Made by a program: the position numbers and the translations under genes | The notes under the pieces: model-generated | Databases searched by the model: none | What the model was told of the DNA's origin: nothing | What the model saw: only the letters and a program-made list of their open reading frames with translations | NCBI RefSeq assembly: GCF_023229105.1 | Contig: NZ_JALNZY010000001.1 | Coordinates: 1,938-65,937 of the forward strand | DNA from: Sulfurimonas sp. | GTDB taxonomy: Bacteria > Campylobacterota > Campylobacteria > Campylobacterales > Sulfurimonadaceae | DNA: 64,000 nt | Reading direction: 5' to 3' | Shown here: in pieces, positions 26,724-47,104 of the stretch | Numbering within the stretch: position 1 is the first letter of the stretch | Layout of the letters: each line of letters begins with the position of its first letter

Positions 26724-27074
26724 ATGAAAAAAACAATAGTAGGCTTATCGATTTCAACACTTTTTTTGTGTAATATTTGGGCTCAAGATATAAGTGCCCA
26801 AAGAGGTCAAGTGATATTTGAAACAAAAGGGTGTGTGACATGTCATAAAGATGATATAGATACAATCGGGCCATCATTGTCTACAATTGCCAGAGAGTAT
26901 CTAGGAAAAGAGAGAGAACTTCTCTCTTATCTTAGAGGACAGGCACCGGCTATTATTGATCCTGCGCGTGCACCGGTTATGGATCCGCAACTTGTAAAAA
27001 TCAGGTCGCTTTTTGATCCGGATATGCAAGCGCTTACAATGTACATCATTTCTGCAAACGACAGACCGTTTTAA
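26724..27074 (+). CDS. monoheme class I cytochrome c (c551/c552-like)
   Basis: Signal peptide, CVTCH, IGPSL, distal Met (PVMDPQ). Confidence 0.88.
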   Translation: MKKTIVGLSISTLFLCNIWAQDISAQRGQVIFETKGCVTCHKDDIDTIGPSLSTIAREYLGKERELLSYLRGQAPAIIDPARAPVMDPQLVKIRSLFDPDMQALTMYIISANDRPF

Positions 27075-27102: not shown

Positions 27103-28287
27103 ATGAAATATAGCTGGTTTTTTATATTAAAGATAGTAGTTGTCATGCTATCTGTTAGTGTCTTCGCACAAGGAGCTGTTTTAACAGATGCTGAGAAGTT
27201 TTACGGCACAGAACTCAAAGCATCAAAAAAAGTTCAGCACCCTCCTTTTGAGTGGGGTGACTGTACTGTTTGTCATACGGACGCAAAGGGGGAAGGAGCT
27301 CTTATTATGGATCCTCCTGAGTTATGTGCTATGTGTCATGAAGCAAAAGACACCAAAGCATTTATTCATGGTCCGGTAGCAGCAGGTGCATGTACAGCTT
27401 GCCATAATCCACATGAATCAGATAATGCAAAATTATTAACAGCATCTAGTATAAATGAGCTTTGTGTTTCATGTCATCAAGCTAAAGATGAGTTTATGCG
27501 CAATACCGCAAATATCCACTCGCCAGTAAAAGATCAGTGTATTAATTGCCATGACCCCCATACCGAGGATCATCAGTATCAATTAAAAGCCGATGGTAAA
27601 AAAGATCTCTGTGTTATGTGCCATGTCGATAAAGAAGTTTGGACAAGCACGGTAACAGATAAGCACGGCGCACTTGATAGACCTAGAAAGTGTTTAGAGT
27701 GTCATGATGCGCATGGCTCAGAGGTGCCGATGAATTTGATTAAAAATACTTCAAAAGAGCTCTGTTTGTCATGTCACAGCGAATCATTAACAAGAGATGA
27801 AGACGGTAGTAAGATTCTAAATATAGGAAAACATCTTGAAAATAATCCTGACTGGCATGGTCCTATTCTCTGGGGAGATTGTGCAGCATGTCACAATCCG
27901 CATGGTTCAAATAACTTAAGAATGTTGAACAAGCCGTTCCCTAGAACTTTCTATGATAAGTTTGAAGAGGATAACTATATCTGTTTTCAGTGCCATGAAA
28001 AAGAGAAGATTATGGATGCCAATACAACAACAGCGACAAATTTTAGAAACGGCTCAAACAATATGCACTTTGTACATGTAAACAAAGAAAAAGGTCGCTC
28101 TTGCCGAGCTTGTCATGATTTCCATGGTACAAAAGAGTATCCGCACCACTTAAGAGCAAAGACGAAGTTTGGTAAGATAAACTTCCCTATTCGTTTCATT
28201 GAAACGGAAAACGGCGGTTCATGTGCACCTGCCTGCCACGCTCGCCGTCACTATGACAGAGCAACGCCAAAAGTTAACCTTAAATAA
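27103..28287 (+). CDS. periplasmic dodecaheme cytochrome c (paired-CXXCH type; 11 CXXCH + CX3CH)
   Basis: Signal peptide; repeating H-x-P...CXXCH-xPH...L-CXXCH units; terminal CAPACH. Confidence 0.92.
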   Translation: MKYSWFFILKIVVVMLSVSVFAQGAVLTDAEKFYGTELKASKKVQHPPFEWGDCTVCHTDAKGEGALIMDPPELCAMCHEAKDTKAFIHGPVAAGACTACHNPHESDNAKLLTASSINELCVSCHQAKDEFMRNTANIHSPVKDQCINCHDPHTEDHQYQLKADGKKDLCVMCHVDKEVWTSTVTDKHGALDRPRKCLECHDAHGSEVPMNLIKNTSKELCLSCHSESLTRDEDGSKILNIGKHLENNPDWHGPILWGDCAACHNPHGSNNLRMLNKPFPRTFYDKFEEDNYICFQCHEKEKIMDANTTTATNFRNGSNNMHFVHVNKEKGRSCRACHDFHGTKEYPHHLRAKTKFGKINFPIRFIETENGGSCAPACHARRHYDRATPKVNLK

Positions 28288-28288
28288 A

Positions 28289-29314
28289 ATGAGTTTTAAA
28301 TTTATATACTTATTTCTCTTGTTATTTACCACAATAAGTGGTAATGCGCAAGAGATATCTTCCTTAATACTTCAGCCTCAAGATAAAACACGTTATATTG
28401 GAGAGAGCAGCACTTTTGTAATAAATGCTACGCTTAAAGAGGCAGACTATATAGTTATAGAGCAAAGTGATATAACTACGACATTAGAAATAAAACCGCA
28501 AAAAGATACATACTGTAAAACAATTAACCTCAATCCGGGAGAAAACACTGTTTTTGTTACTCTTTACAAGGATGCAAAACCTATAGGTAAAAGTAGTAGA
28601 GTGCTCTATTTTCTTTCAGAACTTTTTGAGGGAGTTGATGAATATGAGCTTGATGAGTACAAGATAAGATTTTTTCATCAGGATGCCAAAGAGAAGAAGT
28701 GTGCCTCATGTCACAATATGACATCAAATATTCCAACGAATAATGAAGCTCTTGAAGATGTGACAAAAACCACATGTTATGAGTGTCACAACAGCATGAT
28801 AAGTACAAAAAACACACATGCTCCAGCTGCCAACTGGCTTTGCATCAATTGCCATAATGGAAAATTTGGCGAGTATAATATGCAAGATAAAGGCGCTTCA
28901 AAATACTTAGTAGCAGATCCAGTGGCAAAAACTTGTGCAGAGTGTCACGAGGATGTTAAAGAGTGGGAAGAGAGTAAATTTGGACATGGTCCTGTGAATG
29001 ATGGAAGATGTGAGAGGTGTCATAACCCACACGGCTCAGACAACGAGTTTTTTCTAAGAAAATCAATCTGGGAGTTGTGCACTACATGTCATGCTGAAAA
29101 ATCAAATGGACAACATGTTACATCAGCTATAGGTTTTGGTGCACCGAATAAAAGTGGAGGACATCCAACAAGAGATAGAGAAGACCCTGCACGTCCCGGA
29201 AGAGAACTTACTTGTAGCGGATGCCATAACCCGCACGGTTCCGGCGGAATATCTCTGTTAAGAATGAAGGGAACTATGCCTTATGGCGTATGTCAAAGAT
29301 GCCACAAGAAGTAA
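28289..29314 (+). CDS. octaheme cytochrome c with N-terminal non-heme beta-sandwich-like domain
   Basis: Start moved to MSFKFIY at 28289; signal peptide; ~130-aa heme-free region, then 8 CXXCH. Confidence 0.9.
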   Translation: MSFKFIYLFLLLFTTISGNAQEISSLILQPQDKTRYIGESSTFVINATLKEADYIVIEQSDITTTLEIKPQKDTYCKTINLNPGENTVFVTLYKDAKPIGKSSRVLYFLSELFEGVDEYELDEYKIRFFHQDAKEKKCASCHNMTSNIPTNNEALEDVTKTTCYECHNSMISTKNTHAPAANWLCINCHNGKFGEYNMQDKGASKYLVADPVAKTCAECHEDVKEWEESKFGHGPVNDGRCERCHNPHGSDNEFFLRKSIWELCTTCHAEKSNGQHVTSAIGFGAPNKSGGHPTRDREDPARPGRELTCSGCHNPHGSGGISLLRMKGTMPYGVCQRCHKK

Positions 29315-29400: not shown

Positions 29401-29505
29401 AGTGATTTTTTTCTCTCTTTTAATCATGTTTAATTTAGATTTAGTTATACTTGTACTAGAAAATAGTATTACAAAAAATTATATACTATTAGGGAAGGAG
29501 ACAAA

Positions 29506-30249
29506 ATGATTAGTAATAAAATCAAAGTTATTCTGTTTGCATCAATGTTAGGTGCCTCGTCTGTATTTGCTGGTCCGATTAGTGGTAGTCCGCATGACTT
29601 GTCCGCTCTTGCTGGATTAGATAGTTCAACTGCTGACAATGGGGAGATATGTGTATATTGTCATACGCCTCACGCGGCAAACTCCGCTTTTACAGGTGCG
29701 CCTTTGTGGAACAAGGCTACTCCAGCGGGAACATTTGATATGTATGGTGCAACAATAGCAGGAACAAATACAGAGGCAGCTCCGGCGAGTCCGTCTTTAG
29801 CATGCCTTAGCTGTCATGATGGTGTTAGTGCGATAGACTCTATTGTAAATGCACCCGGTTCTGGTATGAAATCAGTAACTGGATCTAAAGACATAGTAAC
29901 TGGTCTTGCGACTCAGTATGGCGGGAACATAGGTGGTCCGCTAAATGCTACGACTACGGGTAACCCTGATTTGACAAACGATCATCCTGTATCGATTATA
30001 TATACAGAGGGTAAAGCTGGACTTAGAGCGACTACTGTAAATCTTGCAACACTAGGTGATAATATTGCTTGGTTGGGTGCTACAACTATTGGAGATTTGC
30101 TTCGCGGGCCTACAAATGATCAAGTAGAGTGCGGTAGTTGTCATGATCCACATAACGGTGGAAATGATCAAGCAACAGCTACTGAAGTTAACTTCCTTCG
30201 CCATACAAATAAAAACAGCTACCTTTGTCTAGGTTGCCACAATAAATAA
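29506..30249 (+). CDS. secreted tetraheme cytochrome c, OmcE-like (candidate nanowire subunit)
   Basis: Sec signal (SVFA/G); PHDLS, EICVYCHTPH, PLWN, CLSCHDG, DLTNDHPV, VECGSCHDPH, FLR, LCLGCH. This order matches my recollection of Geobacter OmcE. Confidence 0.8.
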   Translation: MISNKIKVILFASMLGASSVFAGPISGSPHDLSALAGLDSSTADNGEICVYCHTPHAANSAFTGAPLWNKATPAGTFDMYGATIAGTNTEAAPASPSLACLSCHDGVSAIDSIVNAPGSGMKSVTGSKDIVTGLATQYGGNIGGPLNATTTGNPDLTNDHPVSIIYTEGKAGLRATTVNLATLGDNIAWLGATTIGDLLRGPTNDQVECGSCHDPHNGGNDQATATEVNFLRHTNKNSYLCLGCHNK

Positions 30250-30253
30250 TATT

Positions 30254-30280
30254 CAGTAGAGAGGTTCTTCCTCCCTGCTG
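30254..30280 (+). terminator. imperfect hairpin terminator after the OmcE-like gene
   Basis: CAGTAGAGAGG-ttctt-CCTCCCTGCTG followed by a T-rich tract. Confidence 0.55.
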
Positions 30281-30306
30281 TCTTCATTTTCCCATTATAC
30301 TTTCTT

Positions 30307-30315
30307 TGTTATAAT
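30307..30315 (+). promoter_or_regulatory. extended -10 promoter of the NHL/PPIase/barrel operon
   Basis: TGTTATAAT 33 bp upstream of the ATG at 30348. Confidence 0.6.
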
Positions 30316-30347
30316 GCAATATTATTATATCAAAGTCGGAGTCTTAT

Positions 30348-31451
30348 ATGAAAATCATCTTTCTTTCAATTCAAGTTATTATAATGTTCTTTTTTCAGGC
30401 TTGTGCTACCAAAGAGGTTGAAGTAGAAAAAATTATAACATTTCCTCAATATCCACAAACACCAAAAATACTGTATCTAACCACATACAGAGGTGGTGCA
30501 AAAGAGGATAAGTCAAGTGCATTAGATGTTTTTTTGGGTGAAAAAAAGAGTGAAAAAAAGGTTTCAAACATCATCAAGCCATATGGTGTTGGACTTCAAG
30601 ATGGCAAAGTGTATGTTGCGGATACAGGTTCGGATGCAGTATTTGTAATAGATGAGAATAGCAGAGAGCTTAAGTTTATAGGCAACGGTATAGTAGGCAG
30701 ACTTGCTGCACCTGTTGGAATTGCATTTGATAGAGATAAAAATTTATATGTAAGTGATTCGCGTGAGAGAAAAATAAACGGCTATAACTTAAACGGAGAG
30801 CTAAATTTTGTTCTTGGGGATAGAATGGAGTTTGCAAGCCCTACGGGAATTGCAGTAGATAAAAAACAGCACAGACTTTATGTTGTAGATACAAAAGCGC
30901 ATCAGTTTAAAGCTTACGATATTGCTACAAAAGAGCTTCTGTATAGCGTAGGTCAAAGAGGCACAAATGATGCAGAGTTTAACTTTCCTACAAACATTGC
31001 AGTAGATCAAAGAAATGGAAATATAGTAGTTGTAGATACACAAAACTTTCGAGTACAAATATTTGATAAAGATGGAAAATTTATAAGCAAGTTTGGAAAT
31101 ATCGGCAATAAGCCGGGAACATTTGCAAGACCAAAAGGTGTCGGTATTGACAGTGAGGGTAACATTTATATAGCTGATAGCGCGTTTAACAATATTCAGA
31201 TATTTGATGAGAAGGGAAGCGCACTGCTTATGTTTTTTGGCGGTGGGGGTTATGGTCCAACTCAGTTTCGTCTAGTTACTGGAGTATATATAGATGAGAA
31301 TGACAAGATAATAGTTGCTGATGGTTTTAGCGGAAGAGTACAGACATTTCAGTATATTAGTGAGAAATGGAAAGAGAACAATCCTCAGAAATATAGTGAA
31401 ATTACTGCTCCTCCAAATCTAGAATCGGATAATAAAACAGAAAAAAAGTAG
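30348..31451 (+). CDS. NHL-repeat (6-bladed beta-propeller) lipoprotein
   Basis: Lipobox FQAC; repeats PYGVG/PVGIA/PTGIA/PTNIA/PKGVG...YVADT, FNFP, NFRVQIFD. Confidence 0.92.
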   Translation: MKIIFLSIQVIIMFFFQACATKEVEVEKIITFPQYPQTPKILYLTTYRGGAKEDKSSALDVFLGEKKSEKKVSNIIKPYGVGLQDGKVYVADTGSDAVFVIDENSRELKFIGNGIVGRLAAPVGIAFDRDKNLYVSDSRERKINGYNLNGELNFVLGDRMEFASPTGIAVDKKQHRLYVVDTKAHQFKAYDIATKELLYSVGQRGTNDAEFNFPTNIAVDQRNGNIVVVDTQNFRVQIFDKDGKFISKFGNIGNKPGTFARPKGVGIDSEGNIYIADSAFNNIQIFDEKGSALLMFFGGGGYGPTQFRLVTGVYIDENDKIIVADGFSGRVQTFQYISEKWKENNPQKYSEITAPPNLESDNKTEKK

Positions 31452-31460: not shown

Positions 31461-32396
31461 TTGAATAAAGTATTTTTAATAGCCGTTTTAGGCACATTTT
31501 TATACGCAGGTAAGATACTGTTACCGGAATCTACGGTTGCAGTTGTCAATGGTACTGCTATTTCAGTAGATGAGAGAGACAAAGAGGTTGGAAAACTGCT
31601 TCCAAAAGCATATTTTCACTCAAGCGTAAATGCTGAAAAGCTAAAAGATTTACAAGAAAAAGCACTGGAAACATTGATTGAAAAAACACTGCTTTATACT
31701 TATGCTGTTTCAAAAAATATAAAAACAAGTGAGAGTGAAGTAGATGAAGTTATGACAAATCTCGCTGCAACTTACGGCTCTAAAGAAAAGCTAGAAGAAG
31801 CAGTGAAGCAGCTTGGATTTACAAAAGAGACTTTTAGAGAAGTTGTTAAAAAAGATGAAACACTAAAAAAACTTTATAAAAAAGAGATAAAGAGTGATAT
31901 TAGCGATAGAGCGCTAAGAGACTATTATGAAAAAAATAGCTACAAATTTAAAGAACCTGAAAAGATAAGAGTTAGACTGATACATATAAGAAACAACCCT
32001 GAAGATCCAGAAGGCAAAAGCAAAGCAAAAAAGAGAGTTGATGATGCAATGGCAGAGATAAAAAAGGGGACTCCTTTTGCAGATGTAGCGGCAAAATACT
32101 CTACTGCTATGAGCCGCATTAAAGGCGGAGATATGGGATTCCTTCATAGAGGAAGACTGGAAGTAGCGGTTGAAGATGCTGCTTTTTCTATGGAAATTGG
32201 GCAAACAAGTGAGATTATAGAACAAGATATCGGTTTTTTTATAGTAAAAGTGGAAGATAAAGCCCTATCAAATCAGCTCTCTTTTGAAGAAGTCAAAGAT
32301 GGACTTAAGAAGGATTTAAAAACCAAAGAAGAAGATGAAAAAAAAGCAAAACTACTTGAGAGGCTAATGCTAAATTCGGTGATTGTGAAACAATAG
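31461..32396 (+). CDS. periplasmic parvulin-type peptidyl-prolyl isomerase / SurA-PrsA-like chaperone
   Basis: VAVVNGTAIS SurA-N pattern; VRLIHI, FADVAAKYS, KGGDMGF rotamase motifs. Confidence 0.9.
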   Translation: MNKVFLIAVLGTFLYAGKILLPESTVAVVNGTAISVDERDKEVGKLLPKAYFHSSVNAEKLKDLQEKALETLIEKTLLYTYAVSKNIKTSESEVDEVMTNLAATYGSKEKLEEAVKQLGFTKETFREVVKKDETLKKLYKKEIKSDISDRALRDYYEKNSYKFKEPEKIRVRLIHIRNNPEDPEGKSKAKKRVDDAMAEIKKGTPFADVAAKYSTAMSRIKGGDMGFLHRGRLEVAVEDAAFSMEIGQTSEIIEQDIGFFIVKVEDKALSNQLSFEEVKDGLKKDLKTKEEDEKKAKLLERLMLNSVIVKQ

Positions 32397-32397: not shown

Positions 32398-34179
32398 GTG
32401 TTACAAAAAAAAACCCTATGTTGCCTCTGTCTAACCCTTGCATTAGTCTCAAGGCTTGCGGCAAATGATTATCCCGATGGTGGACTTTATGGAAGCCTAA
32501 ATTATCTATATATTCAAGATGATTATACCAATAGCGGAAGAGAGAACTCAAAAGAGAACTTTTTACAAGAGTATAAAATGGGGTACAAAGGCAATATCTA
32601 TAGTCCACGTCTGCTTGACTACTCACTTGAAGGTCTTATTAGATTTGATACAGAAAAACTTCAAAGAGACAAAGAGACATCAAAGCGTAAAACTTACGGG
32701 GAAGATTATAAAGCATATCTTGATTTTATCAAAGACACAAAAGTTCCTTTTACTATTTATGCGAATAAAACACAAAGACCGGTAAATACGGTTTATAGCG
32801 CTTACTCAACAAATTATCAGTATGAGACAAGCGGCGAGGGAGTAACCGGTTCTTTAAAATTTGAACCGTATATGGTTACATATGGGGCTACTACAATAAA
32901 AACAGTGGCAGAGTTCAGCGACAGACTGCAAGATTCTCGAACTACAACTTACAGTAGTTCATTTCGTTATAACAAAGAAAAGCATAACGTACAAGCAAAC
33001 TATTCACACTCCATATTGGAAAATGAACAAAACTATATTAACGATGAAATTACGAGCATTAATCAAGTCAAAGATATATTTGCAATATCTCATAACTGGA
33101 AAGCTTCTGATGCTTTTAATATAGATTCTACTGCATCATATGAAAATGATGAATATTATGCAAGAGAGACTATGGATGCAGGCGTGAATCTAAACTATAG
33201 ACCAAAAAATGCCGACTATGACACTTACTTATCGTTTCTTGGAACGACAATGGAGTATGGAGATTTAACAGGGGGTGAAAAATATATTTTTGACTCGTTA
33301 AACATTAATCAAGGAGTTAACTACAGGGTAACTCCGAGTATTACTTTATCAGAGTCTGCCATGGCATATTTATATGATAGCACGACCTCAAGTGGCAGCA
33401 ATTCGTATGTTAATTTAGATGCTACTCACAACTATGCAACTACTATATTTTCAGATGTTTCTTTTACTCTTGTAAGCAGGGTGGGTGTGCAAAAAAATGA
33501 TTCTATAGTAAAAACCATCTTAGATGCAAACTCAACCACTACAAAAACAAGTACAGAGAGATATAACATTCAGCTCACCGCTAGAGGGAGAAAAAATTTC
33601 CCTTCTATCAATTCAAATTTAAATATAGACAGTGGCTACTATCACTCTTTGTACTCTACAAAAAGAGAAGAGCAGAGATATAACTTTGGGCTCTATTTTT
33701 TGTCAAAAATTTTTAGTATCGTAAATAATAATATTACTGCCAGATACAGTCATACAAATACTATCCCTGCGCCTTCTTTAATTACGCCAGAAGGAAGAAG
33801 CAGCTATTCAACGACAAATATAATGGAGTCTTTAGATTTTCATTTTAGACTTGGCGCAAGAGGACGAATCAGATTTAGAGTTGGAGCAGAATATGTAAAC
33901 ACAAAAACTGATAATGAAACCAACAGCCGTGTTGACCCAAGAGCAGAGATGAATATGAACTATAGGTTTTTCAATAACTGGATGTTTGATGCTTCCGCAA
34001 GGATAAACGAAGCATACAATACTCTTGAGCATTCAGGAAATGCAAATTTGACATTCAAAGCAGGAAAAACTAGTTTTTTAATGGGATATCAGTATAATAA
34101 GAGTGAGATAGAGAGTGTTTTAAACACAATACAAAATGAGCGTTCAACTTTTAGAGTACAGTTGACGCGGACATTTTAA
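32398..34179 (+). CDS. large outer-membrane beta-barrel protein (porin-cytochrome conduit or secretion pore candidate)
   Basis: GTG start, signal peptide, Tyr/Asn/Ser-rich alternating strands throughout, C-terminal FRVQLTRTF beta-signal, no CXXCH. Confidence 0.8.
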   Translation: MLQKKTLCCLCLTLALVSRLAANDYPDGGLYGSLNYLYIQDDYTNSGRENSKENFLQEYKMGYKGNIYSPRLLDYSLEGLIRFDTEKLQRDKETSKRKTYGEDYKAYLDFIKDTKVPFTIYANKTQRPVNTVYSAYSTNYQYETSGEGVTGSLKFEPYMVTYGATTIKTVAEFSDRLQDSRTTTYSSSFRYNKEKHNVQANYSHSILENEQNYINDEITSINQVKDIFAISHNWKASDAFNIDSTASYENDEYYARETMDAGVNLNYRPKNADYDTYLSFLGTTMEYGDLTGGEKYIFDSLNINQGVNYRVTPSITLSESAMAYLYDSTTSSGSNSYVNLDATHNYATTIFSDVSFTLVSRVGVQKNDSIVKTILDANSTTTKTSTERYNIQLTARGRKNFPSINSNLNIDSGYYHSLYSTKREEQRYNFGLYFLSKIFSIVNNNITARYSHTNTIPAPSLITPEGRSSYSTTNIMESLDFHFRLGARGRIRFRVGAEYVNTKTDNETNSRVDPRAEMNMNYRFFNNWMFDASARINEAYNTLEHSGNANLTFKAGKTSFLMGYQYNKSEIESVLNTIQNERSTFRVQLTRTF

Positions 34180-34192: not shown

Positions 34193-35203
34193 ATGAAAAT
34201 TTTTTTATATATGCTGGTTTTTATAGGGGGCTTCAATACTTTTTATGCTCAAGAGAGAGTAAAATTGGTATGGCCACCGCCGCCGGATGAGGCCAAAATA
34301 GAGTTTGTCTCTTCTATCCATAATTCTGATGATTTAGGGATAAAAAAAGGTTTTTTTTCAAAGGCTTTTGATTTTTTATTCGGTAAAGAGGAGAGAAGCC
34401 TCCGAGCTCCGTTTGGTGTTCACGCTCATGAAGAGAGAGTTTATACGACCGATATAGCTACAAAATCACTCTATATATTTGATAAAAAAAAGAATAATAT
34501 GATTACGATTAGCGGTTCTAAAAAGGAGCAGTTTTTATATCCTATAGATATTACGACTGATGAGAGTGGAAATATTTATGTCTCAGACTCCGTAAGAGCT
34601 AAAATATATGTCTTTGAAAAAGATGGAGATTACAAATACTCTATAGAGCCAAAAATGCTGCAAAGACCGGTTGGAATTGCTATAAGCCCAGATAAAAAAC
34701 TCTATATCGTAGATGCGCTCTCAAGCCAGATACACGTAACTTCTCTAAAAGGGGACTACTTAGGATCTATCGGCAAAAACGGCACAGGCGATGGAGAGTT
34801 TAACAGACCTACCTTTATGGATATCGGTCATGATGGAAAGCTTTATGTGTCTGACTCTATGAATCATCGTGTGCAGATACTCGGTAGTGATGGAGGGTTT
34901 ATAGATAAATTTGGTAAGTTAGGGCAAGAGATAGGGAACTTTGGTAGTCCTAGGGGTATCTCGATAGATAGTGATGAGAATATTTATGTATGTGATACGA
35001 TGTTTAACAATATACAGATTTTTAATCAAAAAAAAGAGCTATTAATGGTGCTTGGTCGTTATGGAGATAAAAGAGGCGAATTTGCCCTAGCAGAAGATAT
35101 TTCAATAACAAAAGATAATATAATATATGTAACAGATACCAATAATAACCGCATTCAACTCTTTAAGCTTATTAACTCAGCACAGATAAGGAGTTTAAAA
35201 TGA
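34193..35203 (+). CDS. second NHL-repeat beta-propeller protein
   Basis: Signal peptide; PFGV/PIDI/PVGI/RPT/PRGI repeats, GEFNRP, NHRVQI, NNRIQLF. Confidence 0.92.
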   Translation: MKIFLYMLVFIGGFNTFYAQERVKLVWPPPPDEAKIEFVSSIHNSDDLGIKKGFFSKAFDFLFGKEERSLRAPFGVHAHEERVYTTDIATKSLYIFDKKKNNMITISGSKKEQFLYPIDITTDESGNIYVSDSVRAKIYVFEKDGDYKYSIEPKMLQRPVGIAISPDKKLYIVDALSSQIHVTSLKGDYLGSIGKNGTGDGEFNRPTFMDIGHDGKLYVSDSMNHRVQILGSDGGFIDKFGKLGQEIGNFGSPRGISIDSDENIYVCDTMFNNIQIFNQKKELLMVLGRYGDKRGEFALAEDISITKDNIIYVTDTNNNRIQLFKLINSAQIRSLK

Positions 35204-37260
35204 AATCTTTAATAATTACTTTATTGGTTTTTTTGTTTTTTTCAACCATTGAGTCGGCAGCCTCGATTGTAAATACAAAGCATAACCTCTCGGTAACAAG
35301 TGCTGTAGGAAACATAAAAGCTACGAGTGAAACTGAGGTTTGCGTCTTTTGTCATATACCGCATTTCTCACAGACTATTGGAAAGCCGCTTTGGAACAGA
35401 AGTATGCCCACAACAGACTATGTTATGTATGATAGTGATTATCTAAGACGGATGGGTTACCCTTCAATTGCCTCAGACCTTGGCTCGGCAAATGATACTC
35501 CGGGGGCACTCTCTCGTCAATGTCTTAGTTGTCATGATGGAACGATTGCCGTCGGTGCAGTCTCAAAACTTAGACGTGATTATGATGGCTCCTCAACAAT
35601 AGATATGAGCGGTGATGCCCCCGATGGAACCATACCCGATACAGCAGTAGGATTTATAGGCGCGGATCTCTCAAATCATCATCCCGTAGGAGTTGTCTAT
35701 GACCCGACAATAAGTAAAACCTTTGGCAATGGCGGAATCCGCTCAATGGAGCTAAAAGCAATACCAGACGCTCCTATAAAACTTTATGAGTATGCAGGAT
35801 ACAGCGGAAAATATGTAGAGTGTTCCTCCTGCCATAATCCGCATAAAGAGAATAGTAAGTTTTTACACTATGACAGCGGGGCAAACCATGGGCAAAATTT
35901 TGTAGGCACATGTACATCTTGTCATGAAAAAACGGATTGGACAGGGAGTGTGCACCAAAATCCTCCAGGTAATCCAACATATACCGATGCAGAACTTATT
36001 GCAAGATATGGAACTGGTGCTGTAAAAGAGCTTGGGTGTGCAAATTGTCATGTGCCTCACAACGGGGAGGGTGTAGGATACTTAAATAGACAGGTTAACG
36101 AGCAGACATGTTTTCAAGGAGCTGCCTCTACTGAGGGTGGTGCTGCTTGTCATGGTGTCGGCGGGGCAAAAGATATAAAGTCTATTTTAAGCAGATTATA
36201 TACTCATCCTGTCTTGGCGGAGGATAATATTGTGGGAACTCAGCATACAAATCTTGATACGCTCTATGGAACAGGCAATCTTGACCCGCTTGCTATAAAA
36301 GGGATGGACTGGGAAACAAATAAACATGCTGTTTGTATGGATTGTCACAATCCGCACCGTGCACGTGCCGGCACACATATAGTTGACGGTTCATGGTATG
36401 GCGTGCCCGGAGGATCTACAAATCTTGTCTCAAATGTACTTAAGGGAGTCTCCGGTATTGAGCCAACATGGCCGCCAGAATGGACACAGCCGACTACATT
36501 TACAACCATGGAGAGTTCAGAGAAGGAGTACCAAATCTGTTTTAAATGTCACTCATATTGGGGAATAGGTCTTGTAGCTAATAAATATGCTCCTTCAACT
36601 TATACTTCAGCAGGCGGTACTTTGCTTACGGATGTGGCATGGGAGATGAATATAAACAATAAATCTGGACACCCTGTTGTTATAAATTCTCTTGGAAGAA
36701 GTGGTGCTTATGCTCCAAAGGAGCTTGATACAATTCAGCTGCTTACGCCGTGGAAAGAGAATCCAGGGCTTAACACTATGTACTGTTCTGATTGTCACGG
36801 AGCCGATAATGAGCTTGGAGGCGACCCAAAAGGTCCTCATGGCTCAAACTTAAAGTATATTCTTAAAGGTGTAAATCAACACTGGCCGATGAAGCCAGAT
36901 GGTATTACTCTTTACACTATGGATGATTTGAAAAACAATACTGCCCAAGAGCTATTTTGCGCAAACTGCCATGACCCTAAGGAGCCACATACTACATGGT
37001 GGAATAAGATGGCAAACAAAGGTTACCAATGCGTTCAGTGCCATGTAGCAATACCGCATGGTTCTTCTGTTTCTAGACTGGTTGGATATCAGGGTTGGCC
37101 GGCGCCATATAATTATCAAGGGAATAAGTTGACTATGATTGGATATCGAAAAAATGCTTACACGCTTGTTGACCCGCGGGATGCATATGCTACGCATGCA
37201 GGTGGTGGCAGCTGTCATACCACAAATGCCGGTGGTTATGACTTGAACTTGATGCCGTAG
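35200..37260 (+). CDS. secreted multiheme cytochrome c: OmcE-like tetraheme module plus C-terminal extension (10 CXXCH + CX12CH)
   Basis: Signal peptide; SIVNTKHNLS...EVCVFCHIPH...PLWNR...CLSCHDG...DLSNHHPV...VECSSCHNPH...FL...CTSCH, then 7 further sites. Confidence 0.85.
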   Translation: MKSLIITLLVFLFFSTIESAASIVNTKHNLSVTSAVGNIKATSETEVCVFCHIPHFSQTIGKPLWNRSMPTTDYVMYDSDYLRRMGYPSIASDLGSANDTPGALSRQCLSCHDGTIAVGAVSKLRRDYDGSSTIDMSGDAPDGTIPDTAVGFIGADLSNHHPVGVVYDPTISKTFGNGGIRSMELKAIPDAPIKLYEYAGYSGKYVECSSCHNPHKENSKFLHYDSGANHGQNFVGTCTSCHEKTDWTGSVHQNPPGNPTYTDAELIARYGTGAVKELGCANCHVPHNGEGVGYLNRQVNEQTCFQGAASTEGGAACHGVGGAKDIKSILSRLYTHPVLAEDNIVGTQHTNLDTLYGTGNLDPLAIKGMDWETNKHAVCMDCHNPHRARAGTHIVDGSWYGVPGGSTNLVSNVLKGVSGIEPTWPPEWTQPTTFTTMESSEKEYQICFKCHSYWGIGLVANKYAPSTYTSAGGTLLTDVAWEMNINNKSGHPVVINSLGRSGAYAPKELDTIQLLTPWKENPGLNTMYCSDCHGADNELGGDPKGPHGSNLKYILKGVNQHWPMKPDGITLYTMDDLKNNTAQELFCANCHDPKEPHTTWWNKMANKGYQCVQCHVAIPHGSSVSRLVGYQGWPAPYNYQGNKLTMIGYRKNAYTLVDPRDAYATHAGGGSCHTTNAGGYDLNLMP

Positions 37261-37267: not shown

Positions 37268-37807
37268 ATGAGATTTTTTTTATTAATATTACTATTTTTA
37301 GTGCAGCTTTGTTTTGCTAGCTCAAATGTAAATGATGATAAACGCATAAAAGATTCGTTGTTGAAATATAACTATGGAATCATCAAGATGACAAATAGCG
37401 GCAATACAAAACTTTTAAAAGATATGCTCTCTCAAGAGGTATATTTTAAGTTGATGGTTTGGGCAGACTCTTGGAAGTTCAGCAATCTTGCCATGGTTGC
37501 GCAGATAAATGACTTAAGGTTCTCTCCGATTGCTTACAATGAGAATAATGCCACCATAAGAACTATGGAGAACTGGACATTTGGGTATGCTGACTTGGTA
37601 AAGAGAGATTATGCATTAAAACCTATGACAATCTTTTATAAGATGAAATATACGCTAAAAAAACATCATGGGGAGTGGATAATAGTTGCTGTTGAAAATC
37701 TTCAAGAGGAGGTTTTTACGGAGCCAAATACGCATGAGACATCTTTGCTAGAAAAAAAAGAGAAGCCAAAAGAGGAGGCTGTGCAAGGAAAAATAGAGAC
37801 ACATTAA
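37268..37807 (+). CDS. exported hypothetical protein, NTF2/SnoaL-like fold suspected
   Basis: Signal peptide; ATIRTMENWTFGY...YKMKYTLKKHHGEWIIVAV pattern. Confidence 0.55.
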   Translation: MRFFLLILLFLVQLCFASSNVNDDKRIKDSLLKYNYGIIKMTNSGNTKLLKDMLSQEVYFKLMVWADSWKFSNLAMVAQINDLRFSPIAYNENNATIRTMENWTFGYADLVKRDYALKPMTIFYKMKYTLKKHHGEWIIVAVENLQEEVFTEPNTHETSLLEKKEKPKEEAVQGKIETH

Positions 37808-37902: not shown

Positions 37903-40900
37903 ATGACATTTATTAAAAAAGTGTGGTCATTTTTAATCTCTATGAAATTAATGGCCGTTCTAATTCTGTTATTTGGAGCCGCAAGCGGCGTAGGAACGTT
38001 TATAGAAAATGATTACGGTGTAAATACTTCTTGGGCTGTTATATATGCAAGCAGATGGTTTGAGGCAATTCAGATACTGCTGGGAATAAGTATTTTGGGA
38101 AATATTTTTCGATATAAAATGATTCAGAAAAAAAAGATTCCTGTTCTTATATTCCACGTAGGATTTATAGTTATTTTAATAGGTTCTGGAATAACACGTT
38201 ACTGGGGTTATGAGGGCATAATGAATATACGTGAAGGTGCAACTGAACACCGCATGCTCTCATCTGATGCATTTTTGCAGATAGAGGCAAAAAAGGGCCC
38301 TAAAGAGTTTATAAAACATAAGGTAGTTTATGTCTCTGAGCTTGGGGGAAGAGACTTTAGCGAGAGTTTATATATTGACGATAAAGAGCTTAAGGTAACC
38401 TATAAAGGTTTTATAGCAAAAGCGGTAAAAACGGTTGTTGAAGATCCAAACGGAAAGCCTATAGCAGGACTTGTCATAATGACGCCTCAGGGACCTGAGA
38501 AGTATTTTATAAGCAGCGGAGAATCTTTTGATGTCGGTCCGCTTGCCGTATTTTTTGACAAAGAAGTCTCTGTAAACAAGCCTGTTATTCGCCTTATGAG
38601 CGAGGGAGATAAAATATCTTTTGTGGCTAATGTTCCTATCGGATGGACAAAAATGGCTGATAGAACAGAGGGCGTTTATGAAGCAGGCGTGAAGTACGCA
38701 TTTGATGCGGGAGAGCTCTATAATGTCAGAGGCGTTCAGGTAGTTGCCAAAGAAGTTTATGAGAGAGGTGCAGTCAAGGTTGTTGATGCAGATGAATATC
38801 AAAAAACTGCAAAACAGAATCTTAACATGGATAAAAACCCGCTATCTGCACTCGTAGTAGATGTTACATACAACGGAGAAACACGTGAGGTCGCTATGAT
38901 GGGTAAAGGAAAGCGTTATCAGGGCTTTACAGAGCTGCTAAATATGGATGATATAGAGCTTACACTAGAGTGGGGTGCAAAGATTTTAGAGCTACCGTTT
39001 GCGCTTAAGCTAAATAAATTTGTGATGCTAAAGTACCCAGGCTCGATGAGTCCATCCTCTTATGAGAGCTATATTACTCTGTTGGATAATAAAAACAGTA
39101 TAAAAGAGGATTATAAGATTTATATGAACAATGTACTTGACTATGGTGGATATCTCTTTTTTCAATCATCTTACGACAAAGATGAAAAAGGAACTGTACT
39201 ATCTGTAAATCATGACCCAGGAAAGTGGCCTACCTATATAGGCTATATAATGCTTGGAATAGGGATGTTTCTAAACCTTTTAAATCCAAATAGCTACTTC
39301 GGAAAACTTGCCCGCATGAAATATGAGTACAAGGCTGGAGTTGTTGCAGCAGTTGTGGCTTTTACAACACTTTTTGGCACGCAGCCTCTTGTCGCATCAA
39401 CTGCTGATGCCGGGCAAATTAAACATGTTGATGCAAACCATGCAAATCACTATGGGACTCTGCTTGTTCAGAGTCGTGACGGCAGGATTAAGCCTCTTGA
39501 TACGATGAGTATGGAGTATCTAAATAAAATTACTGCAAAAAGTAGTATGTTTGGACTCAGTCACAATCAGATAATTTTAGGCATGGCATCAAACCCTGAA
39601 GCTTGGAAAGAGGTGGAGATGATTAAAATCTTCCACCCGAAACTGAAAAAAGAGCTAGGAATAGAAGAGTCAAAAAACAGTTTTGCCTACAGCATAGTTT
39701 TTGATAAATTCGGTAACTATATTTTAGGTCCATTGGCGGAAGAGGCTCTTAGAAAACGCCCTGCAGAGAGAGGCACTTACGAAAAAGAGATTATTAAAGT
39801 AGATGAGAGAGTAAATGTCGCTTATATGGTATATTCAGGACGTTTTATGACCGTCTTTCCTTTAAAAGGAGATCAGACTCATAAGTGGTACTATCCTCAA
39901 GAGGCATTAGAAACTTTTCCTAGTGAAGCCGCAAATGAGGTAATGGCTCTTTTAAGAAGCAACTCTCTGGGACTCTCTAAAGGGTTGCAGAGTGGTAACT
40001 GGAGTGATGCAAACAAGGCAATTGACGACATTAAAGCATATCAGGTTAAGATAAACCCAGAGCTAGTAGCAGAAGATATGCTTATAAAAGCAGAGTTGTT
40101 ATATAACAAGCTACAAATCTTTGAGAGGCTTTACCCTATCTATCTGTTGTCCGGTCTTCTTTTGCTTGTGTTGATTTTTATCCGTTTAGCAAAACCTGCT
40201 CTAGACTTAAAAAGAGTTGTGCGCGTGATACTTGTTATTTTTGCAGTTGCATTTGTCGTTCATACGTTTAGCCTTGGACTTCGATGGTACATAGCAGGGC
40301 ATGCACCGTGGAGTAACGGATATGAGGCGATGCTTTATATCTCATGGAGTATAATTTTAGCCGGTCTCTTGTTCGCAAGGTCATCAGAGCTTGCAGTTGC
40401 AACTACAGGTCTTTTTTCGGGAATAACACTTTTTGTAGCACACTTAAGCTGGCTTGATCCTCAAATCACGACCATGGTACCTGTACTTAAATCCTACTGG
40501 CTGACTATACATGTATCTATAATTACGGCGAGTTACGGCTTCCTTGGGCTTAGTACACTGCTTGGCTTTATATCGTTGATATTTTATATTATGCTTGCAA
40601 ATAAGAGTAAACGTGAGCAGATTAGCGTTAACATTATGGAATCTACTCGTATAAGCCAGATGTCAATGATTGTGGGACTTTCTCTTCTTACGCTTGGAAA
40701 CTTTATCGGAGGTGTTTGGGCAAACGAGTCCTGGGGAAGATATTGGGGATGGGACCCTAAAGAGACTTGGACTATAGTTACAATCGCTGTTTATGTTTTT
40801 GCAACACACATGCGTTTTATCCCCGCACTCAAGTCAAACTTTTTATATAATGTAGTCTCCGTTATAGCGTATGCATCAGTCATTATGACTTACTTTGGAG

Positions 40901-41061
40901 TGAACTATTATCTCTCGGGTATGCACTCTTATGCCGCAGGAGATCCTGTTCCGGTACCAGAGTGGATATACTATGTTATCTCTGTAATAGTTTTAGTTAT
41001 TATCATGGCATCGTTAAATCGTGAAAAATTGGTAAAAGTAAAACCGATAATCACAAAGTAG
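37903..41061 (+). CDS. ccsA: fused system II cytochrome c synthase (CcsBA; NrfI/CcsA1/CcsA2 type)
   Basis: ResB-like N-half (FHVGF..ILIG, YPGS..PSSY); CcsA C-half with WANESWGRYWGWDPKETW (WWD domain) and GMHSYA. Confidence 0.95.
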   Translation: MTFIKKVWSFLISMKLMAVLILLFGAASGVGTFIENDYGVNTSWAVIYASRWFEAIQILLGISILGNIFRYKMIQKKKIPVLIFHVGFIVILIGSGITRYWGYEGIMNIREGATEHRMLSSDAFLQIEAKKGPKEFIKHKVVYVSELGGRDFSESLYIDDKELKVTYKGFIAKAVKTVVEDPNGKPIAGLVIMTPQGPEKYFISSGESFDVGPLAVFFDKEVSVNKPVIRLMSEGDKISFVANVPIGWTKMADRTEGVYEAGVKYAFDAGELYNVRGVQVVAKEVYERGAVKVVDADEYQKTAKQNLNMDKNPLSALVVDVTYNGETREVAMMGKGKRYQGFTELLNMDDIELTLEWGAKILELPFALKLNKFVMLKYPGSMSPSSYESYITLLDNKNSIKEDYKIYMNNVLDYGGYLFFQSSYDKDEKGTVLSVNHDPGKWPTYIGYIMLGIGMFLNLLNPNSYFGKLARMKYEYKAGVVAAVVAFTTLFGTQPLVASTADAGQIKHVDANHANHYGTLLVQSRDGRIKPLDTMSMEYLNKITAKSSMFGLSHNQIILGMASNPEAWKEVEMIKIFHPKLKKELGIEESKNSFAYSIVFDKFGNYILGPLAEEALRKRPAERGTYEKEIIKVDERVNVAYMVYSGRFMTVFPLKGDQTHKWYYPQEALETFPSEAANEVMALLRSNSLGLSKGLQSGNWSDANKAIDDIKAYQVKINPELVAEDMLIKAELLYNKLQIFERLYPIYLLSGLLLLVLIFIRLAKPALDLKRVVRVILVIFAVAFVVHTFSLGLRWYIAGHAPWSNGYEAMLYISWSIILAGLLFARSSELAVATTGLFSGITLFVAHLSWLDPQITTMVPVLKSYWLTIHVSIITASYGFLGLSTLLGFISLIFYIMLANKSKREQISVNIMESTRISQMSMIVGLSLLTLGNFIGGVWANESWGRYWGWDPKETWTIVTIAVYVFATHMRFIPALKSNFLYNVVSVIAYASVIMTYFGVNYYLSGMHSYAAGDPVPVPEWIYYVISVIVLVIIMASLNREKLVKVKPIITK

Positions 41062-44378: not shown

Positions 44379-45008
44379 GTGCAAAAAGATGATATGAGAA
44401 TAGAAAGAAAGAGAAAATACTCTTTTGGAATAAGGGTTATAATTGCTCTTATAGTAGGTGGAGTAGTTGTAGGGATGGGAACATCTTTTGTTACGGTCAT
44501 TGCAGTAAAGCATACGTCAGACGTAAACTTTTGTGGTTCTTGCCACTCTATGAAGCCTATGGCTGATGCTTATAGAAATAGTGTTCATGGTGGGTACGGT
44601 GATAGCGGTATTATGGCTACTTGTGCGGATTGTCACTTGCCACATGAATCTACTCTTGGTTATATGGTACAGAAGGTTAAGACCGGTATGTGGGATGTGT
44701 GGGTTGAGACTACGCACGATACTTCAAAAATTGATTGGCATGAGCGTCGCAGAGAGCGTCGTAACTGGGTTTATGATAGTGGATGTCTGCATTGTCATGA
44801 AAACTTATTACGCGGTACCCGACCAAATAAAAAGGCATTTACTGCTCATAAAGCCTATTTCTCTGAAAAACTTTTAGTTGAAGGTGAAGATGGGAAAGAG
44901 CGTGCAAAGTGTGTTGATTGTCACAGAAATGTAGGTCACTATCAACTAGAAAAACATCTTCCGCCACCGCCAGTGGAAGTATATAATGAAAATAATAAAA
45001 AGCATTAA
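44379..45008 (+). CDS. NapC/NirT family membrane-bound tetraheme quinol dehydrogenase (CymA/NrfH-like)
   Basis: GTG start; N-terminal TM helix; TSDVNFCGSCHSM, CADCHLPH, CLHCH, CVDCH..VGH. Confidence 0.93.
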   Translation: MQKDDMRIERKRKYSFGIRVIIALIVGGVVVGMGTSFVTVIAVKHTSDVNFCGSCHSMKPMADAYRNSVHGGYGDSGIMATCADCHLPHESTLGYMVQKVKTGMWDVWVETTHDTSKIDWHERRRERRNWVYDSGCLHCHENLLRGTRPNKKAFTAHKAYFSEKLLVEGEDGKERAKCVDCHRNVGHYQLEKHLPPPPVEVYNENNKKH

Positions 45009-45014
45009 GGAGAT

Positions 45015-45539
45015 ATGATGGAACAAAAATATATTAAACCAACTATTATTGTGGGTGTGCTTGTTATCATTATCATTCTGCTTGCTATGTCAAATGCTGG
45101 TGAAAAGTTTGTGCGTTTAGGAAAAATTGGGGAGCAGATTGCAACCAATCTTGCTAATGCAAGTCATGGAGATCCTCGTTCTCTTAAAGAGATGGACAAA
45201 GAACGAATAAAAGCTACTACGGGTAGCTCTCATACCGTAGATGTCAGTGAGTTGCCAAAGGCATTTCTCCCACTCAAAGAGCATGGGCATCCACCTTTTA
45301 CCCTGGGTGCGTGTAACGTATGTCATGCTTCAAGAACAGATAAGCCCGCTGCAATTACGACTCGTACGGTAGCTGAGCTTTGTTACACATGTCATTATCC
45401 AAAAGAGGAAATTGATAAGCGTATGGCTGCACTAGATTGTAATAAGTGTCACAGCCCTCATCACGCAGATAGGGAAAAACTTGTGCGAAATAAAGTTATT
45501 GAAAAAGAGTGTCCAGTAGGTGAATTTCAATCAAACTAA
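45015..45539 (+). CDS. membrane-anchored triheme cytochrome c
   Basis: N-terminal hydrophobic helix; CNVCH, CYTCH, CNKCH; HPPF.LGAC motif shared with the dodecahemes. Confidence 0.85.
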   Translation: MMEQKYIKPTIIVGVLVIIIILLAMSNAGEKFVRLGKIGEQIATNLANASHGDPRSLKEMDKERIKATTGSSHTVDVSELPKAFLPLKEHGHPPFTLGACNVCHASRTDKPAAITTRTVAELCYTCHYPKEEIDKRMAALDCNKCHSPHHADREKLVRNKVIEKECPVGEFQSN

Positions 45540-45583
45540 TAGTTTGATTGAAATTTGGTAGTTAAAAAACACGAGGTATAGTA

Positions 45584-47104
45584 ATGAAACAAAATATGAC
45601 AAAAATAATAATAACAGTGTTGGTATTAGCACTGAGTGTATTCTTATTTCAGTCATATGGTGTTGCTGATAAGCTGAGTCGCTTTGTTACTATAATGGGT
45701 AATATAACAAATAGTCTTAAAAATGCCAAACATGCCTATGAAGAGGTTAATTTTACTATAAGCGATGATGAATTAAAAGATGTCAATATCACTAAACTTG
45801 CCCAAGAGTTTAAAAGTTCTATTGATAAGAAAAAAGAGGCTCTTGTTCTTGCTATAAAAGCACCGCCAGAGATTCAAGTTGATGAGATTAGAGAAGAAGA
45901 GATCCCAACACACACTAAAACACAAACAATAAAAGCAAAAATTGTTAAGATGGAAGATTTACCTGCAAAATTCAAACCGCTTAAGCAGTATCTTCATGAA
46001 CCATTTAAGATGGGAGCATGCCAAATCTGCCATACATCAAAGAATAATAAACCCGGAGAGCTGGTTAAGAAAAATATTTCTGAGATATGTTATGAATGTC
46101 ACAAGACTCGCTACACAAAAAAGTTTGATCATAAACCTGCAAAAGATGGACGATGCATGGACTGTCATGATCCGCATCAGTCAAATACAAAAAAGTTACT
46201 AAAGGCTGAGTCTGTAAATACCCTATGTCTGAAGTGCCATGACCGCAAAAGCACATTCAGTGCAAAAGCAGAAAAGCTGTTTGTCAACATGGACTTGGCG
46301 GTTAAGCATAAGCCTATTGTAGAAAAGAGTTGTTTAGAGTGTCACGATGCACATACGGCAGATCACAAATCACTCCTTTCTCTTGATGCAAAGATGGATT
46401 TATGTTTGGATTGCCATGATACAATTAAAGAAAAAATAACTCATGCAAAGTTTAAACATGGTGGTGTAAATACAAGTGAGAAGCGCTGTTTAGAGTGTCA
46501 TGATCCGCATGCTACAAAACATGTTAAACTGCTTAAAAAAGACCCGGTTGCTACATGTTTAAAGTGCCATGACAAAGAAGTAAAGTCTGATGAAGACGGC
46601 GGAATGCTTATGAATATGAAAAAGCATCTAGACGAAAATCCAAATTGGCACAAACCAATAAAAGATGTTAAAAAAGAGGGAGGATGTTCAGCTTGTCACG
46701 ATCCACACGGTTCAGATAACTTTAGCATTCTAAGAAAATCTTTTACGCAAAACTTTTATGCTGATTTGGCAAATAAAGAGTTTTTTTGTTTTAAGTGTCA
46801 CACAGAGAAAAAAATTACAAAACAGTTTATCACTACTTCACAGGAGCACAATATTACTGCGTTTAGAGACGGCGAGGTAAATCTGCACTACCTACATGTA
46901 AACGATAGAAAAGGGCGTGCATGTAGAGCTTGTCATGATGAACATGCTTCTAAATACAAGCATCTTATAAGGGACTATACCGATTTTAACGGTATAAAAT
47001 TTCCGCTTAGGTTTAAAGAGAGTGCTGAGGGTGGTTCTTGTGCTCCTGCTTGTCATAAAGAGTTTGCTTATGACCGTGTTAATCCAAAAGGGATAGGAAA
47101 GTGA
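45584..47104 (+). CDS. membrane-anchored dodecaheme cytochrome c (11 CXXCH + CX3CH), paralog of 27103-28287
   Basis: N-terminal TM helix and ~110-aa heme-free stalk, then paired-CXXCH units ending GGSCAPACH. Confidence 0.92.
   Translation: MKQNMTKIIITVLVLALSVFLFQSYGVADKLSRFVTIMGNITNSLKNAKHAYEEVNFTISDDELKDVNITKLAQEFKSSIDKKKEALVLAIKAPPEIQVDEIREEEIPTHTKTQTIKAKIVKMEDLPAKFKPLKQYLHEPFKMGACQICHTSKNNKPGELVKKNISEICYECHKTRYTKKFDHKPAKDGRCMDCHDPHQSNTKKLLKAESVNTLCLKCHDRKSTFSAKAEKLFVNMDLAVKHKPIVEKSCLECHDAHTADHKSLLSLDAKMDLCLDCHDTIKEKITHAKFKHGGVNTSEKRCLECHDPHATKHVKLLKKDPVATCLKCHDKEVKSDEDGGMLMNMKKHLDENPNWHKPIKDVKKEGGCSACHDPHGSDNFSILRKSFTQNFYADLANKEFFCFKCHTEKKITKQFITTSQEHNITAFRDGEVNLHYLHVNDRKGRACRACHDEHASKYKHLIRDYTDFNGIKFPLRFKESAEGGSCAPACHKEFAYDRVNPKGIGK

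Follow-up and report, generated by a model that had tools for sequence, protein, structure and literature searches.

The 64,000-nucleotide (nt) stretch of Sulfurimonas sp. DNA analysed here (contig NZ_JALNZY010000001.1, hereafter called the window) contains at 29506..30249 a gene for a tetraheme c-type cytochrome of the OmcE family. In this Sulfurimonas-like bacterium, the gene product is probably the major subunit of a cytochrome nanowire of the OmcE type. At the sequence level, its product of 247 amino acids (aa) is a full-length homolog of both OmcE proteins with solved structures, and all the heme Cys and axial His are kept. The gene is part of a cluster that resembles the surroundings of omcE in Geobacter sulfurreducens (Table 1).

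The N-terminus of the 247-aa protein, MISNKIKVILFASMLGASSVFA followed by GP after the predicted cut, carries two Lys in its n-region, followed by a hydrophobic core, with V-F-A preceding the cut. The signal peptide was assigned by eye, and this segment aligns with the signal region of the OmcE precursor. The protein bears four heme-binding motifs, CVYCH (49-53), CLSCH (100-104), CGSCH (209-213) and CLGCH (241-245). Further His residues are H30 (in PHDLS), H56 (CHTPH), H160 (NDHPV) and H216 (CHDPH), with H233 (LRH) as a ninth. A first-pass annotation, made from the DNA letters alone, had listed a Sec signal, four CXXCH motifs, four extra His and one more in LRH, and every one of these details was correct. 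It also described the linkers as rich in Gly, Thr and Ala, and these residues make up 35% of the mature protein (79 of 225).

When the 247-aa protein was searched with phmmer against 177,635 PDB sequences, it matched chain 7tfs_A, the OmcE filament of G. sulfurreducens, with an E value of 1.6e-22 (query 5-247, chain 6-232, 34% identity), and chain 9yuq_N with an E value of 2.7e-18 (query 5-247, chain 3-218, 35% identity). The next, unrelated match had an E value of 0.27. Antiparallel bundled OmcE filaments of Desulfuromonas soudanensis WTL were solved by cryo-electron microscopy, and the two validated OmcEs are mutually 41% identical (Petersen et al., bioRxiv 10.1101/2025.10.22.684050). Entry 9YUQ is taken to be this bundle structure on the ground of its timing and its 16 identical chains. 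The alignment with OmcE, which the first-pass annotation had proposed as a check, was thus significant over the full length against both solved filaments. The anchors of OmcE which that annotation had listed (KHDLS, ICVFCHTPH, PLWNR, CMSCHDG, DLSNDHPV, ECGSCH, FLR and LCLGCH) are all found in the deposited 7TFS sequence, where they align in identical order with the 247-aa protein.

Two alignments were used to examine the heme ligands. Alignment A1 contained 13 sequences (the 247-aa protein, both solved subunits and ten Sulfurimonas-type homologs), and alignment A3 contained 118 sequences after addition of Geobacter-type homologs. In both of them, Cys residues C49, C52, C100, C103, C209, C212, C241 and C244 and His residues H30, H53, H56, H104, H160, H213, H216 and H245 were invariant. 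Since the four distal His and the eight CXXCH Cys are invariant among the 118 aligned homologs, the resemblance goes beyond a generic CXXCH similarity with no conserved distal His. The ends of the protein correspond as well: the N-terminal His follows the predicted cleavage site by about 8 residues, which is also true of G. sulfurreducens OmcE, and the chain stops 2 residues beyond the last CXXCH, as OmcE does. H233 was considered as a special ligand of the family and rejected, its position being occupied by K, I, V or T elsewhere, including both solved OmcEs. It is kept, within FLRH, in most Sulfurimonas homologs. A nine-His OmcE-like protein has been speculated to be a filament stopper (bioRxiv 10.1101/2025.10.22.684050); such a role seems unlikely for the 247-aa protein because it is the sole short subunit here.

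The family is widespread. It comprised 4057 clusters at 50% identity with E <= 1e-3 (2316 with E <= 1e-10), and relatives of the 247-aa protein were found in more than 591 species-representative genomes among the matches listed. Some OmcE homologs, often of 300-360 aa, bear five CXXCH motifs (comparison loci L016, L020, L021, L038, L054, L058, L059, L070, L073, L074, L080 and L081), and these may be the 'five-heme OmcE-like' group of the preprint cited above. In L054, L058 and L070, as well as in the four-heme locus L019, no propeller, peptidyl-prolyl isomerase (PPIase) or barrel was seen nearby.

The genomic context was compared with the G. sulfurreducens omcE locus (L085), which was fetched for this purpose. 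The genes of the window cluster are all co-directional and are arranged in the order monoheme cytochrome, 11-heme cytochrome, 8-heme cytochrome, OmcE-like subunit, NHL lipoprotein, SurA-like PPIase, 593-aa protein, second NHL protein, 686-aa 10-heme protein, 179-aa secreted protein and fused ResB-CcsA. In L085, the order is ResB, CcsB, a 9-heme cytochrome (370 aa), an 8-heme cytochrome (330 aa), an NHL propeller and omcE, followed by a 752-aa protein without Pfam match and then by glycosyltransferases. By BLASTP, the 394-aa cytochrome of the window was 36% identical to the 370-aa cytochrome (E 2.5e-63), and the 8-heme cytochrome matched the 330-aa one over its full length with 28% identity (E 2.8e-39). 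The 367-aa NHL propeller was 34% identical to the propeller upstream of omcE (E 3e-52), which was also matched by the 336-aa propeller (E 2.2e-51), and CcsBA matched the ResB and CcsB proteins flanking the G. sulfurreducens cluster.

Petersen et al. picked nanowire-competent OmcE homologs by their context, namely two multiheme cytochromes, two beta-propeller lipoproteins, OmcE and a large beta-barrel, and found such clusters in five phyla, Campylobacterota among them (bioRxiv 10.1101/2025.10.22.684050). Every element of this context is present in the window cluster and homologous to L085. As far as can be judged from these gene comparisons, the homologous neighbourhood supports the OmcE interpretation independently of the subunit itself. 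Unlike in L085, no block of glycosyltransferase and sugar-modification genes follows the barrel gene in the window. The window cluster resembles the 'minimal' type, which was described for marine, alkaliphilic and thermophilic Desulfuromonadia (bioRxiv 10.1101/2025.10.22.684050).

Table 1. Features of the OmcE-type cluster and of the neighbouring cytochrome operon (positions in the window)
Feature	Position	Strand	Description
Monoheme class I cytochrome c	26724..27074	+	116 aa, secreted, first gene of the cluster; Pfam Cytochrom_C 9.3e-8
11-heme periplasmic-type cytochrome, MtrA/DmsE-like	27103..28287	+	394 aa; Paired_CXXCH_1 1e-52
8-heme cytochrome	28253..29314	+	341-353 aa depending on the start codon; 8 CXXCH
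OmcE-family tetraheme c-type cytochrome, candidate major nanowire subunit	29506..30249	+	ATG start, 247 aa, predicted Sec signal 1-22
Hairpin and U-rich tract, candidate partial intrinsic terminator	30254..30293	+	Directly after the OmcE-like stop codon
NHL-repeat beta-propeller, probable lipoprotein (FFQAC/A)	30348..31451	+	367 aa; Pfam NHL 1.7e-30
SurA-like periplasmic peptidyl-prolyl isomerase	31461..32396	+	311 aa; Rotamase_3 3.2e-21, SurA_N_3 2.6e-12
Outer-membrane beta-barrel, candidate secretion/anchoring pore	32398..34179	+	593 aa, signal peptide, C-terminal Phe
Second NHL beta-propeller	34193..35203	+	336 aa, signal of signal peptidase I type; Pfam NHL 4.9e-28
Decaheme protein	35200..37260	+	686 aa; N-terminal ~245 residues form a second complete OmcE module
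Secreted protein of unknown function	37268..37807	+	179 aa; no Pfam match; co-occurs with the 686-aa protein
Fused ResB-CcsA (CcsBA), System II cytochrome c synthase	37903..41061	+	1052 aa; Cytochrom_C_asm 9.9e-35, ResB 7.7e-22
Second cytochrome operon	44379..49043	+	NapC/NirT-type tetraheme quinol dehydrogenase (209 aa); Cytochrom_NNT 5e-33

The 593-aa protein had no match in a Pfam scan of the protein itself. Its family profile matched outer-membrane barrels of the PDB (CymD, 1e-7; TbuX, 6.5e-4), and 3 of the 41 members of the family matched Pfam OMP_b-brl. With an iterative hidden Markov model (HMM) built from the 593-aa protein, members were found directly 3' of the OmcE homolog in 48 of 86 loci. 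Its relation to the 752-aa barrel of G. sulfurreducens escaped BLASTP, which gave no match, as well as the family HMM (E 0.45) and hhalign with a 3-sequence Geobacter profile (probability 2.5%). When hhalign was run with a 39-sequence Geobacter profile of the 752-aa protein, the two families aligned over 497 columns with a probability of 96.4% and an E value of 1.4e-9. On account of this profile-profile match, the two barrels are remote homologs as judged from their sequences.

Directly after the subunit gene lies the hairpin of Table 1. A 111-nt segment including it (30240-30350) had a minimum free energy of -23.4 kcal/mol, with a z score of -3.79 against shuffles. A clearer GC hairpin with a U-run was found at the matching place in L005, L028, L010, L011, L087 and L085, these terminator-bearing loci being from other Sulfurimonas, Nitrospinota and Campylobacterales metagenome-assembled genomes (MAGs), from Candidatus (Ca.) S. 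marisnigri and from G. sulfurreducens. A consensus promoter and terminator scan of 26300-41900 did not report the hairpin at 30254..30293; over this region the scan performed at chance level, with 51 promoters against 46.5 and 7 terminators against 8.6. The arrangement resembles that of major pilin genes. Being placed right after the subunit gene, the terminator-like hairpin points to a high demand for the subunit and suggests that it may be made in large excess over the machinery. At the 5' end of the gene, AAGGAG is located 7 nt upstream of the ATG. This strong Shine-Dalgarno sequence and the hairpin fit an abundantly made structural subunit.

The genes downstream of the subunit form a recurring cassette. 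For 57 species loci, the sequence extended 7 kb or more past the OmcE homolog on the downstream side. A barrel was found in 38 of them, a PPIase homolog within 3 kb in 35 and an NHL gene in 42, and the three occurred together in 31; a long OmcE-like multiheme protein was encoded in 26. The cassette, in which the subunit is followed by the PPIase and then by the barrel, an NHL gene and the long cytochrome, was seen again in Gamma-, Beta- and Alphaproteobacteria, Magnetococcales, Nitrospirota, Nitrospinota, Aquificota and Acidobacteriota. Neither the PPIase nor the long cytochrome is encoded at the G. sulfurreducens omcE locus. One locus (L048, JBHHWA010000004.1) binned as a Thermoplasmata archaeon carries a complete bacterial-type cassette including the outer-membrane barrel, and is probably a mis-binned bacterial contig.

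In the window, the long cytochrome is the 686-aa protein, whose extension of about 440 residues after the OmcE module bears six more CXXCH motifs. The motifs of its module are AASIVNTKHNLS, CVFCHIPH, PLWNR, CLSCHDG, SNHHPV, CSSCHNPH, FLH and CTSCH. The protein matched 7tfs_A with an E value of 5.3e-22 and 9yuq_N with an E value of 5.1e-17 over residues 5-244, and the 247-aa protein with an E value of 9e-19 (BLASTP). The 686-aa protein keeps all 16 Cys and His of the module, as do 27 of the 28 long homologs compared from other species. Its gene overlaps the preceding NHL gene by 4 nt and is translationally coupled to it.

The monoheme cytochrome gene has the same position in the Sulfurimonas loci L005-L007, L087 and L088. 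The 11-heme cytochrome matched the DmsE-family model TIGR03508 with an E value of 1.1e-34 and 120 bits, under the cutoff of 192 of that model, and PDB chain 6r2q_A (333 residues) with an E value of 3.4e-15. We take this chain to be MtrA of MtrCAB; the name 'Cystathionine beta-synthase' given to it in the PDB table looks like a depositor or parsing error. Homologs of the 179-aa protein follow the long cytochrome in L005, L007, L011 and L033 and adjoin its C-terminal fragment in L034, and a 154-aa ORF occupies the same position in L087 and L088. A System II synthase adjoins the OmcE cluster in Sulfurimonas, in Geobacter and in some Bacteroidota loci (L034, L065). It is the fused CcsBA in the window, and separate ResB and CcsB/CcsA elsewhere (L085, 3911..6148; L087, 19118 onward). 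In the window, CcsBA is followed by a DUF4136 gene.

About 3 kb past the OmcE cluster, the second cytochrome operon encodes, besides the NapC/NirT-type dehydrogenase, a triheme protein with a membrane anchor and three cytochromes with 11, 7 and 8 hemes. These three are paralogous to the pair of cytochromes encoded upstream of the OmcE-like gene; in the closest pairs, MHC506 was 42% identical to the 394-aa cytochrome (E 3e-100) and MHC336 was 41% identical to the 8-heme cytochrome (E 6e-91). The operon may possibly be the inner-membrane entry point for the electrons of the cluster, to which it is linked here by presumption. It is plausible that the locus encodes the parts for a whole path from quinol to the cell surface, in the order that we infer below.

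The closest homologs of the 247-aa protein were from Sulfurimonas MAGs, with up to 82% identity, and two metagenome contigs, one of 346 kb and one of 89 kb, encode an identical protein. The DNA occurs in landfill and groundwater metagenomes. The cluster could have been a horizontal-transfer island, an idea that was rejected. The GC content stays within 35-40% over the whole window and shows no step where the cluster lies, and on the left flank there is synteny with Ca. S. marisnigri and Ca. S. baltica, so that no sign of recent acquisition is seen. Ca. S. marisnigri SoZ1 (CP054493.1; L087) and Ca. S. baltica GD2 (CP054492.1; L088) also carry the cluster in syntenic form; their subunits are 52-53% identical to the window protein, and their clusters are followed by CcsA and ResB. 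In these two genomes, an additional ORF of about 195 aa without Pfam match separates the OmcE-like gene from the first NHL gene (L087, 10941..11528; L088, 10938..11522); it is absent from the window. Ca. S. marisnigri grows by coupling the oxidation of sulfide or thiosulfate to the reduction of solid MnO2, and the route of electron transfer was left open (PMC6589767).

Based on these elements, the following pathway can be proposed. The precursor of the 247-aa protein would be exported by Sec, and its four hemes would be attached by the adjacent CcsBA synthase. In the periplasm, the SurA-like PPIase and the two NHL propellers might chaperone the largely coil-structured, Pro-rich subunit, which would then pass through, or be mounted on, the 593-aa outer-membrane barrel. 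Outside the cell, the subunits would polymerise head to tail, each subunit supplying one axial His to a heme of the next, as in OmcE, and the polymer would form a continuous chain of bis-His hemes. Electrons would flow from the quinone pool to the NapC/NirT-type dehydrogenase, on to the MtrA-like 11-heme and the 8-heme cytochromes, and from there to the chain. The likely role of such a filament is electron exchange, in either direction, with partner cells or with solid phases, for instance oxides of Mn(IV) or Fe(III).

Other explanations of the 247-aa protein were weighed. Its similarity to OmcE might be generic to multiheme proteins, the protein being an ordinary periplasmic cytochrome of the c3 type. 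Close homologs are indeed labelled 'cytochrome c3 family protein' in public databases, and Paired_CXXCH_1 is the only Pfam family above cutoff for the 247-aa protein. This reading was refuted by the phmmer search of the PDB, in which the OmcE match (E 1e-22) was full length and included the non-heme motifs PLWN, NDHP and FLR, while cytochrome c3 entries had E values above 1, and it can be regarded as extremely improbable. Because genuine cytochrome c3 entries scored so poorly, the public label is a generic one. The protein might also be an OmcE-family tetraheme that does not polymerise, serving as a monomeric carrier, periplasmic or at the cell surface, in a porin-cytochrome conduit made of the MtrA-like 11-heme protein, the 593-aa barrel and the 686-aa decaheme protein. 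The match of the 394-aa protein to 6r2q_A and, in part, to the DmsE family agrees with such a conduit, and Mtr/Pcc systems are laid out in this way, as a barrel with one multiheme protein inside and another outside. Eight His for four hemes fit a monomer as well as a polymer, so the His count cannot separate the two, and in so huge a family not all members are expected to be wires. On the other side, both structurally examined members of the family form filaments, the same accessory genes surround the validated omcE of G. sulfurreducens, and the hairpin suggests a demand for the subunit far higher than that for conduit parts. A monomeric carrier is for these reasons considered unlikely.

The nanowire reading itself has several points against it besides the His count and the size of the family. 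Polymerisation, extracellular location and expression in Campylobacterota rest on inference. The sequencing runs in which the gene was found were DNA metagenomes only, and no RNA run contained it. The homology of the barrel is remote and was missed by HMMER alone. Many OmcE-like tetrahemes may not polymerise (bioRxiv 10.1101/2025.10.22.684050), and even for Geobacter it is disputed how much OmcE filaments matter physiologically (PMC13194489). The AlphaFold2 monomer models of the 247-aa protein had a mean predicted local distance difference test (pLDDT) score of 46.4 with a 45-sequence alignment and of 55.7 with the 118-sequence alignment. They were low-confidence models, mostly coil with a helix at residues 3-21, and a Foldseek search of the PDB with the better one gave no match. 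As a heme-dependent, coil-rich fold was predicted without hemes, these models are uninformative and too poor to bear on the fold or the interface. A different arrangement, which would refine the nanowire reading without excluding it, is a capped or heteropolymeric filament in which the 247-aa protein is the repeat and the 686-aa protein a single terminal subunit, either at the base, where it would wire the filament to the barrel and the periplasmic cytochromes, or at the tip, where its extra hemes would serve contact with the mineral. An OmcE-like protein with more hemes has been sought as a tip or stopper, and none is encoded in the Desulfuromonadia operons examined (bioRxiv 10.1101/2025.10.22.684050). 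Since the 686-aa protein is an OmcE module with more hemes, of just the kind sought, it is a candidate terminal (base or tip) subunit or adaptor. Its complete set of 16 ligand residues, its co-encoded and translationally coupled gene and the occurrence of long homologs in 26 of the 57 cassettes across phyla argue in favour of this arrangement. The cytochrome wires known so far are homopolymeric only (PMC11936953), the terminal-subunit reading is purely sequence-based, and the 686-aa protein could equally be an independent reductase of the outer surface. As the G. sulfurreducens cluster has no such long protein, OmcE assembly in general does not need one. The capped filament is accordingly kept as a tentative possibility.

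Compared with known systems, the 247-aa protein is most like G. sulfurreducens OmcE (GSU0618, 7TFS), with which it shares a similar length, a Sec signal, the aligned four CXXCH and four distal His, and the motifs HDLS, CHTPH, PLWN, CHDG, NDHP and FLR. The upstream multiheme pair, NHL propeller, downstream outer-membrane barrel and System II synthase are also common to both loci. The two proteins differ in that their identity is only 34% and that the window protein has loop insertions at about 136-152 and 218-227. The window cluster has in addition the PPIase, a second NHL gene after the barrel, the 686-aa OmcE-fusion cytochrome and the 179-aa protein, and its barrel has 593 aa against 752 aa in the remotely related G. 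sulfurreducens protein. DSOUD_2954 of D. soudanensis WTL (9YUQ) is likewise similar over its full length (35% identity) and comes from a minimal cluster without glycosylation genes, made of two multiheme cytochromes, two propellers, the subunit and the barrel (bioRxiv 10.1101/2025.10.22.684050). The bundling loops of D. soudanensis are not conserved in the family (bioRxiv 10.1101/2025.10.22.684050), and therefore bundling is not predictable for the window protein. The organisms differ in phylum and lifestyle, D. soudanensis being a metal reducer and the window coming from a lineage of sulfur-oxidising chemolithoautotrophs.

OmcS of G. sulfurreducens also forms a cytochrome filament with cross-subunit His ligation and has a companion osc cluster, in which OscH was proposed to act in folding and OscE, F and G in secretion via a porin-like route (bioRxiv 10.1101/2025.10.22.684050; PMC13194489). 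It differs in being a hexaheme without sequence similarity to OmcE. With MtrCAB/Pcc systems, the window shares an MtrA/DmsE-like multiheme protein encoded together with an outer-membrane barrel and an outer multiheme protein. Family and PDB profile searches of the window proteins gave no match to the MtrB or MtrC family above any cutoff, and Mtr systems have no counterpart of the OmcE-type subunit, the propellers and the PPIase. The archaeal PcECN (8E5F) and AvECN (8E5G) are similar in having tetraheme subunits and insulated heme chains; they had no sequence match to the 247-aa protein in the PDB search, and their subunit structure was described as completely different.

Cytochrome nanowires have been shown experimentally only in Geobacter, Desulfuromonas and two archaea, and their secretion, anchoring, start and termination are still open questions (bioRxiv 10.1101/2025.10.22.684050). 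The occurrence of clusters of OmcE, porin and propellers in Campylobacterota is already reported at the phylum level (bioRxiv 10.1101/2025.10.22.684050). The present analysis contributes the OmcE-fusion cytochrome encoded in the cluster, which looks new as a candidate terminal subunit, and the finding that culturable MnO2 reducers carry the cluster. Among the papers searched, none linked Sulfurimonas with OmcE or cytochrome nanowires.

These results place a complete OmcE-type gene system in Sulfurimonas, which are globally abundant sulfur-oxidising chemolithoautotrophs, and make it a good candidate for electron transfer from Sulfurimonas-type bacteria to solid minerals. Because the cluster is present in two cultured MnO2 reducers, the question is open to direct test in cultures. 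The cassette variant described here also holds a candidate for the tip or stopper protein that was sought in Desulfuromonadia operons. More speculatively, and with somewhat less confidence than is given to the capped filament as such, a two-component nanowire made of the 247-aa repeat and the 686-aa end subunit might be the route to MnO2 of Ca. S. marisnigri and Ca. S. baltica. If true, it would be the first case of a cytochrome wire that is heteromeric, as well as the first nanowire from Campylobacterota.

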